Notes under the pieces: generated by a model
Database searches by the model: none
What the model was told of the DNA's origin: nothing
The model's input: only the letters and a program-made list of their open reading frames with translations
Part shown: one piece after another, positions 10,354 to 34,303 of the stretch
Layout: each line of letters begins with the position of its first letter
Position numbering within the stretch: the first letter of the stretch is position 1
Made by a program: the position numbers and the translations under genes
Assembly (NCBI RefSeq): GCF_041886205.1
Contig: NZ_CP169029.1
DNA length: 64,000 nucleotides
Direction: 5' to 3' (one strand)
Source: Escherichia coli
GTDB taxonomy: Bacteria > Pseudomonadota > Gammaproteobacteria > Enterobacterales > Enterobacteriaceae

Positions 10354-11211
10354 TCAGGCTACCGCTTTTTCAGTTTGTTGCGCTTTCAGCCAGGCGATCT
10401 CTTCTGCCCAGATATCCGGGTTGATGGTTTCAAGGATCAGCGGAATGCCGTCGAAACGGTCGTCTTGCATGATCCAGCGGAACGCATCATGACCGATATT
10501 GCCTTCACCGAGGCTATGATGGCGGTCAACGCGGCTGCCAAAGGTACTTTTCGCATCGTTAAGGTGCATCCCGCGCAGATACTTAAAGCCGACAATACGG
10601 GCAAAATCAGCGAACGTTTTTTCGCATTCGGCTGGAGTACGCAAATCATACCCGGCAGCGAAAGCATGGCAGGTATCAATGCAGACGCCGACGCGGGATT
10701 TATCTTCCACGCCGTCGATAATCGCTGCGAGATGTTCGAATTTAAACCCTAAGTTACTGCCCTGACCGGCGGTGTTTTCAATCACCGCGGTGACACCTTG
10801 AGTTTTATCCAGCGCAATGTTGATGGATTCGGCAATACGCGCAAGGCAATCCTCTTCTGAAATCTGCATCAGATGGCTGCCAGGGTGGAAGTTGAGCAAA
10901 GAAAGCCCCAGCTGTTCGCAACGCTGCATTTCATCTATAAAGGCATCGCGCGATTTTTCCAGAGCTTCAGCAACCGGATGTCCGAGGTTAATCAGATAAC
11001 TGTCGTGGGGAAGAATTTGCGCCGATGTGTAGTGATATTTTTCACAGGCGGCTTTGAATTCATCGATGGTTTGCGTCGTGAGCGGTGCGGCACGCCACTG
11101 ACGTTGGTTTTTGGTGAACAAGGCAAACGCGGTTGCGTCGATTTCGGCGGCGCGAATTGCGGCATTTGCCAGACCGCCAGCAGCACTAACGTGCGCTCCA
11201 ATGTATTTCAT
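10354..11211 (-). CDS. nfo: Endonuclease IV
   Basis: 285-aa ORF starting [39 protein letters not shown]. Confidence 0.95.
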
Positions 11212-11284: not shown

Positions 11285-12334
11285 TTATGCGATGACGCTT
11301 TGAATCACATAGTTAATCGCACCACCACCAACAATCAGCCAGGCAAACAGTACCAGTGCCATCAGCAGAGGTTTCGCCCCGGCTTTTTTCAGCGCGCTGA
11401 CGTGAGTGGTCAGACCCAGCGCCGCCATCGCCATTGCCAGCAGGAAGGTATCCAGCGTTACCAGCATGTTCACCACGCTCTGCGGTAACAGGTGGAACGA
11501 GTTAAAGATGGCAACGACGATGAACAAGATGGCAAACCACGGAATAGTGATTTTGCTTTTCTCGCCGCTGTTCGCCCCAGACAGCTGTTTAACACGCGCC
11601 GCCAGCAGGATGAGGAACGGAGCCAGCATCATCACGCGCAGCATTTTGGAAATAACTGCTGCGTTTTCCGCATCCGGGCTGATGGCATGACCTGCCGCCA
11701 CCACCTGCGCCACTTCGTGCACAGTAGAACCAATGTAGATACCGAAAGTTTCCGGACTAAACCATTGAGACATCAGCGGATATATCGCCGGGTAGAGGAA
11801 AATCGCGACGGTCCCGAAGATAACAACGGTTGCAACAGCCACGGTTACTTTACTGGCTTCCGCTTTCACTACCGGCTCAGTCGCCAGTACCGCGGCAGCA
11901 CCACAGATACTGCTACCGGCACCGATCAACCAGCTGGTGTGCTTATCCAGACCAAACACTTTCTGCCCCAGGAAGCAAGCCAGCAGGAAGGTACTGGACA
12001 GCGTCAACACGTCAATGATGATCCCACTGATACCGACATCGGCAATTTGCGAGAACGTCAGACGGAAGCCATAAAGAATGATACCCAGACGTAATAAATA
12101 TTGCTTGGCAAACAGCACACCACCGTCACAGCTTTTCCAGATGTGCGGATAGATGGTGTTGCCTAAAACCATCCCCAACAAGATTGCGAGGGTGAGGGCA
12201 CTAAACCCGGCACCCGCAACCGCGGGAATGGAACCACCCCACAGGGCGACCCCGGTGATAACTGCACTCAGGGCTAACCCCGGAATAAAATGCCACAGTG
12301 TACGATGTTGTTTCTGTAAGGTGATATTCGTCAT
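11285..12334 (-). CDS. yeiH: UPF0324 inner membrane protein YeiH
   Basis: 349-aa polytopic membrane ORF, divergent from the LysR regulator yeiE. Confidence 0.85.
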
Positions 12335-12400
12335 AACCCTCTCCTTTATCCGGGCATAAGGTTACGACTAACTGGTTTAAAAATAAAATTGATTATATAT

Positions 12401-12419
12401 TTATAATTAATCTTTATAA
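12401..12419. promoter_or_regulatory. Candidate LysR-type box in the yeiH-yeiE divergent region
   Basis: ttataa-N7-ttataa dyad (T-N11-A type) read directly between the divergent genes. Confidence 0.3.
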
Positions 12420-12432
12420 GTGGTAAGCGACT

Positions 12433-13314
12433 ATGCACATCACCCTCCGGCAGTTGGAAGTTTTTGCAGAAGTATTGAAAAGTGGATCAACCACCCAGGC
12501 GTCGGTGATGCTGGCGTTGTCGCAATCAGCAGTGAGCGCAGCCTTGACCGACCTGGAAGGGCAGCTTGGCGTTCAACTGTTTGATCGCGTGGGGAAAAGA
12601 CTGGTAGTTAATGAACACGGTCGGCTGCTCTATCCGCGTGCGTTGGCACTGCTTGAACAGGCGGTTGAAATCGAACAACTGTTTCGCGAAGACAACGGCG
12701 CGATTCGTATCTATGCCAGTAGTACCATCGGTAACTACATTCTGCCTGCAGTTATTGCCCGTTATCGCCATGATTATCCGCAGTTGCCGATTGAACTTAG
12801 CGTTGGGAACAGCCAGGACGTGATGCAAGCGGTGCTGGATTTCCGCGTTGATATTGGCTTTATTGAAGGACCGTGCCACAGCACTGAAATCATTTCTGAA
12901 CCGTGGCTGGAAGACGAGCTGGTGGTTTTCGCCGCGCCGACTTCGCCGTTGGCCCGTGGTCCGGTCACCTTAGAGCAGCTGGCCGCTGCGCCGTGGATCC
13001 TGCGTGAACGCGGTTCCGGCACGCGGGAGATTGTCGATTATCTATTGCTGTCACATTTACCGAAGTTTGAGATGGCGATGGAATTAGGTAACTCCGAGGC
13101 AATCAAACATGCGGTGCGTCATGGGTTGGGAATTAGTTGCCTGTCGCGACGGGTGATTGAAGATCAATTGCAGGCAGGCACATTAAGTGAAGTTGCGGTC
13201 CCTCTGCCGCGCCTGATGCGTACGTTGTGGCGTATACATCATCGGCAAAAACACCTTTCCAACGCGCTACGGCGCTTTCTGGACTATTGCGATCCCGCGA
13301 ATGTACCGCGTTAA
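12433..13314 (+). CDS. yeiE: LysR-family transcriptional regulator YeiE
   Basis: 293-aa ORF with N-terminal LysR HTH ([36 protein letters not shown]). Confidence 0.9.
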
Positions 13315-32114: not shown

Positions 32115-32307
32115 GTGATCTTCCTTAATGCTATGAGTAATTAAGGCGAACGCTAAATAAATATTGCGTGCTGATATTAAGGCTAAGCGTGTGGGGAAAT
32201 TTAAACTGTGAAAGGATTCACAATTAGCTGCGGTTCAGAATGTTATATCCGCAGCTTATTGAGTGAAGTAATAATTATTCTCAATAATTAACAGAAAAGA
32301 GAAAATA

Positions 32308-34303
<1,996 letters not shown>

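Follow-up and report, generated by a model that had tools for sequence, protein, structure and literature searches.

A conserved operator block between yeiH and yeiE of Escherichia coli and the probable place of a TTATAA dyad within it

The LysR-type regulator gene yeiE and the transporter gene yeiH of Escherichia coli diverge from a short intergenic region, and a 19-bp dyad in this region, TTATAA-N7-TTATAA (hereafter box B), is probably part of the operator of YeiE. The chance that the dyad (12401-12419) lies within DNA occupied by YeiE is good to high. Box B belongs to a 56-bp block, 12372-12427, which, judged by its conservation, is under strong purifying selection. The regulation of yeiH and yeiE by YeiE has already been published, and the finding is therefore an ordinary one: the feature is a real and functional operator of the common LysR type. 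YeiE and YeiH constitute the main sulfite-stress defence of enteric bacteria, which bears on food preservation with sulfites and on survival in the host. New here is only a prediction, at the level of single bases, of where the operator and the yeiH promoter lie; it could guide footprinting, point mutagenesis and the design of sulfite biosensors; the understanding of LysR regulators is unchanged by the finding. All positions refer to the window, that is, the whole 64-kb stretch of DNA that was analysed.

The yeiH-yeiE locus and its conserved block

According to the list of open reading frames of the window, yeiH and yeiE are divergent and their start codons are separated by 98 bp. YeiH matched TIGR00698 over its full length (568 bits; cut-off 232.6) and also PF03601 (406 bits). 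YeiE matched the NCBIfam equivalog NF040889 (534 bits; cut-off 480) as well as the Pfam domains HTH_1 and LysR_substrate, and all eight sulfite-lining residues of the Cronobacter protein are present in it (S96, S97, N126, S127, E145, R191, S195, and T197). A 271-bp query over the region matched 5425 of 5426 complete E. coli genomes with 95-100% identity, annotated with yeiE and yeiH, and the divergent pairing of regulator and target recurs in most of the related loci compared. On the other side of yeiH, the endonuclease IV gene nfo (10354-11211) is located 73 bp downstream; this adjacency was seen in 77 of 80 Enterobacteriaceae loci.

The initial annotation had proposed that YeiE controls both yeiH and itself, and this is borne out by experiments in Salmonella Typhimurium (Westerman et al., 2026; PMC12880088). 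With purified YeiE, a mobility shift was seen for a 300-bp intergenic fragment (-240 to +59 of yeiE). The activity of PyeiE is higher in a yeiE deletion, meaning that YeiE represses yeiE, and sulfite raises PyeiE only in the presence of yeiE. As long as sulfite is absent, PyeiH is silent, and its induction by sulfite requires yeiE; the sensitivity of a yeiH mutant to sulfite is 20 times that of wild type. For E. coli, the ChIP-exo study of Gao et al. (2018) gives more than 100 YeiE sites, and PMC12880088 cites a strong ChIP-exo peak at the regulatory region of yeiE itself. YeiE of Cronobacter binds sulfite and shifts the cysJI promoter (Hong et al., 2022). The other yeiH papers gave no site or transcription start, and no base-resolution footprint or mutagenesis of the yeiE-yeiH operator was found in the accessible literature.

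In Salmonella enterica serovar Abortusequi (locus L190), which is not the Typhimurium strain of the published experiments, the 56-bp block is identical to that of the window, the TTATAA pair included, and the Typhimurium promoter in Fig. S1 of PMC12880088 reads the same through 12384-12422 when machine-reading noise is allowed for. In the same Abortusequi record (L190, 401-403), the annotated yeiE start is ATT where E. coli has ATG, possibly by a sequencing error or a start-codon mutation.

Conservation was evaluated on 121 distinct operator sequences from 160 loci, 80 of them from species-level genomes and 80 from metagenomes, with Yersinia, Proteus, and one relative with a YeiE 68% identical as added comparison loci. 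The metagenome loci were mostly Enterobacteriaceae- or Erwiniaceae-like with a YeiE 76-85% identical to that of E. coli, and they made the comparison wider but not deeper. Several records filed as plasmids measured 4-5 Mb and carried chromosomal yeiE loci (E. coli, Klebsiella, Proteus, and Aeromonas); these are apparently mislabelled chromosomes. Over the 121 sequences, the information content was 1.5-2.0 bits per position within 12372-12427 versus 0.05-0.5 bits just outside, and the rest of the intergenic region held no other conserved sequence for YeiE to bind. Within the block, positions 12410 and 12412 were conserved in 100% of the sequences, 12416-12419 in 98-100%, and 12401-12407 in 95-99%. 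Positions 12413-12415, including the first two bases of the second TTATAA, varied freely, and the second TTATAA was only two-thirds conserved. The outer arms TTAT-N11-ATAA were kept in 116 sequences and the full TTATAA pair in 41. An Rfam search of 12100-12700 gave no RNA element.

Operator and yeiH start were 56-58 bp apart in 133 of 153 loci, whereas the yeiE start was anywhere from 39 to 595 bp away, so the block is tied to yeiH and not to yeiE. In one locus (L085), yeiE is not divergent, and the motif was nonetheless found upstream of yeiH. The gap between operator and yeiE, 42 bp in E. coli, is about 390-600 bp in Yersinia (L098) and in Erwiniaceae-like metagenome loci (L157, L161, L169-L177, and L181), which implies a long yeiE leader or inserted DNA.

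Table 1. Features of the yeiH-yeiE region, in window coordinates
Feature	Position	Strand	Remarks
yeiH	11285-12334	-	349-aa open reading frame; inner-membrane transporter needed for sulfite resistance
yeiH ribosome-binding site AAGGAG	12341-12346	-	plus-strand CTCCTT; 6 nt from the start codon; 90-100% conserved
yeiH -10, TAACCT (predicted)	12359-12364	-	T, A, and final T of TAnnCT 97-100% conserved, middle two bases variable; fixed distance from the operator
Operator/promoter block	12372-12427		CTGGTTTAAAAATAAAATTGATTATATATTTATAATTAATCTTTATAAGTGGTAAG; 56 bp; putative full binding region of a YeiE tetramer
yeiH -35, TTTATT (predicted, weak)	12382-12387	-	3/6 match to TTGACA; 17 bp from the predicted -10; overlaps the promoter-proximal operator
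GATTAT-N6-ATAATT	12391-12408		central part of the longest inverted repeat; left GAT (12391-12393) conserved as a half-site throughout the family
Box B, TTATAA-N7-TTATAA	12401-12419		core ATA-N9-TAT (12403-12417), T12404-N11-A12416; candidate YeiE recognition site
yeiE -10, TATAAT (predicted)	12402-12407	+	perfect consensus hexamer; overlaps the first TTATAA by five bases; predicted by Shimada et al. (2014)
Box C, ATC-N9-GGT	12410-12424		nod-box-like LysR-type dyad overlapping the second TTATAA; alternative or additional candidate recognition site
yeiE	12433-13314	+	293-aa open reading frame; LysR-type sulfite-sensing regulator

The TTATAA dyad, its chance expectation and the predicted overlapping promoters

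Positions 12401-12419 read TTATAATTAATCTTTATAA, exactly the TTATAA-N7-TTATAA that had been annotated in the short divergent region, and this is the single exact match in the window. TTATAA is its own reverse complement, so that the pair can be described as a direct repeat and equally as an inverted one. It also contains T-N11-A within an interrupted inverted repeat (T12404-N11-A12416 inside ATAA-N7-TTAT), a geometry that is common by chance in such AT-rich DNA. Window-wide dinucleotide shuffles gave a mean of 0.02 matches, with one match in 2 of 100 shuffles. This test overstates the significance, because the motif sits in DNA of 70-85% A+T, the block itself having 85%. When the shuffles were confined to the 98-bp intergenic region, a perfect 6-N7-6 inverted repeat arose in 6.4% of them; when they were confined to the AT-rich block, it arose in 11-14%, and a 4-N11-4 dyad in 58%. 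The symmetry of the dyad by itself is no more than local chance gives; it is the conservation that goes beyond chance and provides the strong evidence. A repeat search found many overlapping dyads within the block, the longest with 13-nt arms (12385-12397 and 12402-12414) that are 85% complementary, and symmetry therefore cannot single out one site. An apparent enrichment of 5-N12-5 repeats in the block was set aside, since it had been picked after the data were seen.

Position-weight matrices of the box, of the 18-bp dyad, and of the whole block detected no second operator copy in the window. The second-best window match to the 19-bp box matrix, TAATAATTATTCTCAATAA (32269-32287; 16.6 of 34.2 bits), sits in an AT-rich gap (32115-32549) between two minus-strand open reading frames and is probably due to chance. 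Nor did the matrices give a convincing similar site in the E. coli cysJ promoter (cysJ-queD intergenic region), though YeiE is reported to act there. A definition of the motif through the regulon was not possible.

The first TTATAA coincides largely with the predicted -10 hexamer of yeiE (Table 1). TATAAT was present at this register in 112 of the 121 operators, and both strands of the block carry it (plus strand, 12402-12407; minus strand, 12397 to 12392). The TATAAT -10 alone could account for the invariance of the first TTATAA, to which RNA polymerase may have contributed as much as YeiE. In the RNA polymerase SELEX of Shimada et al. (2014), PyeiE was predicted as TTAAAA-19-TATAAT and the yeiH promoter, inside the block, as TTACCA-15-TATAAA. 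The latter agrees poorly with the complete lack of PyeiH activity when sulfite is absent. Our consensus scan of 12150-12650 for promoters and terminators returned no sites, and no promoter of 9/12 or better; the promoter elements of Table 1 were therefore deduced from conservation only. On this basis, transcription of yeiH is predicted to start near 12352; the predicted start of yeiE is near 12414. The block would then extend from about -20 to -75 relative to yeiH, with the centre of box B (12410) at about -58 and that of box C (12417) at about -65.

Half-sites in distant operators and alternative readings

We set 17 diverse operators in one register, their regulators being 44-100% identical to YeiE. 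Their partner genes were yeiH or TDT-type transporters, except that the neighbour gene was not identified for a Ralstonia locus in an unannotated record (L182). Regulators about 50% identical but not adjoining yeiH (L082, L084, L093, and L094) were left out, and a homologous-protein search with YeiE, which gave only relatives about 90% identical or closer, was not used for this distant comparison. The first 13 operators compared had in common AAA at 12386-12388, GAT at 12391-12393 (each base in 10-13 of the 13), TAT at 12402-12404, AYC at 12410-12412, A-t-A-A at 12416-12419, and G-R-T-A at 12422-12425. The register AAA-N2-GRT ... TAT ... AYC ... GRTA persists to regulators only 44-47% identical to YeiE, and it was found both with yeiH partners and with TDT-type transporter partners. 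The candidate half-sites for a map of the E. coli operator are GAT 12391-12393, TAT 12402-12404, ATC 12410-12412, ATAA 12416-12419, and GGT 12422-12424.

On three plasmids, from Pseudomonas orientalis, Pseudomonas sp. HR96, and Xanthomonas hortorum (L101, 1-1383; L186, 1-1192; L187, 1-1193), a YeiE-like regulator is divergent from a transporter of the TDT family, the family of the yeast sulfite pump, and a uracil-DNA glycosylase gene directly adjoins the transporter gene. Since cytosine is turned into uracil by bisulfite, sulfite export could conceivably be linked with the repair of uracil and AP sites, and the nfo gene next to yeiH would fit such a link. On a Massilia forsythiae plasmid (L100, 1-1424), a YeiE homologue of 49% identity is encoded just downstream of genes for a molybdopterin oxidoreductase and a c-type cytochrome. 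This pair resembles sulfite dehydrogenase and would be another sulfite-related neighbourhood for the regulator family.

Among the 121 Enterobacterales sequences, GATTAT-N6-ATAAT was kept in 103, AYC..GRT of box C in nearly all, and ATC..GGT in 101, the box C triplets being 84-100% conserved. Over the 17 diverse operators, 38 of 51 pairs were complementary in box C versus 26 of 51 in box B, and the box B register was often asymmetric in the distant operators linked to yeiH. In several operators, box B was nonetheless perfect or near-perfect with differing inner bases: TATAAT/TTTATA in E. coli, TATATC/GATATA in Yersinia, TTTATA/TATAAA in a Pseudomonas plasmid, and TATCCG/TGGATA in locus L096. 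The Yersinia sequence TTATAT-N7-ATATAA is still a perfect dyad. In the distant operators L183 and L187, a second canonical ATC-N9-GRT ends at the conserved GAT/GGT. The left half of the corresponding ATC-N9-GRT at GAT 12391-12393 is degenerate in E. coli, as expected for an activation site over a weak -35. In Proteus, TATAAT is apparently shifted by 2 bp relative to the flanking GAT and AYC, which breaks the spacing of box B. As GAT and AYC are kept there, this argues that TATAAT and the contacts of YeiE are separable.

The reading of TTATAA-N7-TTATAA as the LysR box, with which the analysis started, is plausible but not established. T-N11-A, the conserved outer arms, and the register shared with the FinR box of Pseudomonas speak for it; the variable inner bases of the second hexamer, the overlap with TATAAT, and the better conservation of box C speak against it. 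That the two TTATAA arms themselves are the half-sites of one dimer has, in our estimate, a little less than an even chance. A competing reading, which we regard as possible but distinctly doubtful, holds that they are not half-sites at all. The first would be the -10 of yeiE, the ATAA of the second would be the A/T-rich centre of the true dyad ATC-N9-GGT, a second dimer would bind on GAT 12391-12393, and the symmetry of box B would be a by-product. The conservation and complementarity of AYC-N9-GRT, the best-conserved dyad over the 17 operators of the YeiE family, fit this reading, as do the second canonical copies in L183 and L187, the shift of TATAAT in Proteus, and the frequency of dyads like TTATAA-N7-TTATAA in local shuffles. 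Box C of E. coli is, however, itself imperfect, with T-N11-G rather than T-N11-A, and the dyads of the experimentally validated FinR, of L096 and L101, and of Yersinia are perfect or near-perfect in the register of box B, not in that of box C. Moreover, box B and box C are not exclusive, as overlapping alternative sites are frequent in LysR operators.

Two further explanations would take the dyad away from YeiE altogether. The block could mainly consist of two overlapping back-to-back constitutive sigma-70 promoters (PyeiE TTAAAA-19-TATAAT and PyeiH TTACCA-15-TATAAA), with YeiE acting elsewhere or only by occlusion. The RNA polymerase holoenzyme alone did select this spacer in genomic SELEX (Shimada et al., 2014), and TATAAT is present on both strands, but we consider this explanation improbable. 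PyeiH of Salmonella, being undetectable without sulfite and without yeiE, is no constitutive promoter; an unbroken conserved stretch of 56 bases, with GAT, ATC, and GGTAAG in it, is more than two promoters need; the intergenic region offers YeiE no other conserved sequence; the register of the block is kept in L085 without a divergent yeiE; and our scan found no promoter reaching 9/12. Less credible still is that the dyad is a chance palindrome or the site of another protein, either a LysR-type one such as Nac or an AT-preferring nucleoid protein. The consensus of Nac is ATA-N9-TAT, which is indeed present at 12403-12417, and symmetric AT-rich DNA often arises by chance. Against this, the dyad strictly co-occurs with a yeiE-family regulator and its transporter target over a range that reaches from the Enterobacterales to the Betaproteobacteria and includes plasmids, its near-invariance is incompatible with neutral DNA, direct binding of purified YeiE to the fragment has been shown, and the motif has no second copy in the window.

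Proposed mechanism and comparison with known systems

With the dyad taken as part of the YeiE operator, we propose the following model. A YeiE tetramer would occupy the whole block 12372-12427. One dimer of its DNA-binding domains would sit on the distal site, either ATA-N9-TAT (centre 12410) or ATC-N9-GGT (centre 12417), and the other on a proximal activation site near GAT 12391-12393 and the A-tract, over the weak -35 of yeiH. The distal site would cover the -10 of yeiE and its predicted start near 12414, and its occupancy would therefore repress yeiE. Sulfite bound to the regulatory domain would reposition the dimers in the manner of the sliding-dimer model for LysR regulators, so that RNA polymerase could use the yeiH promoter and the repression of yeiE would be partly relieved.

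A more elaborate version, which we think unlikely, is a three-box operator in which YeiE switches between the overlapping distal dyads, 7 bp apart, according to whether sulfite is absent or present. Sliding of the dimer would then take place at the distal site, over the -10 and start of yeiE, and not only promoter-proximally, and the half-site register would be ancient, common to regulators of about 45% identity that govern YeiH or TDT-type sulfite exporters. If true, such an arrangement would explain how sulfite both relieves the autorepression of yeiE and activates yeiH.

Several known systems were compared with the yeiE-yeiH operator. IHF, H-NS, and Lrp-type consensus sequences were compared by eye, and none matched the operator well. 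At the level of gene organization, Hyphomicrobium denitrificans (Hden_0835/0834) and Bordetella pertussis YeiH are alike in that a LysR regulator and a YeiH exporter are adjacent and are induced when sulfite is generated, according to published descriptions, which give no operator. The nod box, ATC-N9-GAT, is the motif of the NodD-type LysR regulators. Box C resembles it with ATC-N9-GGT, and at this position L081 and L092 have ATC-N9-GAT, whereas L089, L101, L186, and L096 have ACC-N9-GGT. The regulator and the regulon differ from those of the nod box, and the E. coli copy has G and not A at the T-N11-A position.

A close and experimentally studied counterpart is the box of FinR, the YeiE homologue of Pseudomonas aeruginosa acting at finR-fprA (Boonma et al., 2017; PMC5302815). 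The FinR box, TATCCA-TATTC-TGGATA, shares a 17-bp frame with TATAAT-TAATC-TTTATA of E. coli (12402-12418), and box B could be aligned to it in register through the intermediate TATCCG-TTACC-TGGATA of L096. The two boxes have in common the outer TAT/ATA, T-N11-A, 11 bp between the half-site centres, and a central pentamer ending in C. Mutation of the TATCCA arm abolished binding in EMSA. Seen from the activated promoter, the FinR box occupies -46 to -83, and it also overlaps the promoter of the regulator itself (PMC5302815). The differences concern the inner triplets, the target, and the placement. The FinR-type inner triplets CCA/TGG were not found in E. coli, where they are AAT/TTT, the right one being variable in Enterobacterales. 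The target is fprA for FinR and yeiH for YeiE. The predicted -10 of yeiE is inside the box, whereas relative to the finR promoter the FinR box occupies -22 to -51.

In classical LysR-type operators, such as those of CbnR, BenM/CatM, OccR, and AtzR, recognition takes place at a site near -65 and activation at one near -35, and their function is described by the sliding-dimer model. The same layout is given in a review (PMC11495319). The yeiE-yeiH operator resembles them in the divergence of regulator and target, in a conserved region of about 55 bp at about -20 to -75 of the predicted target promoter, in a distal T-N11-A dyad and a weak -35 under the proximal part, and in autorepression together with inducer-dependent activation. 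It differs from them in that its sub-site boundaries and the yeiH start are inferred, in its two overlapping distal dyads, in its unusual richness in A+T, and in that sulfite raises the expression of yeiE as well as that of yeiH.
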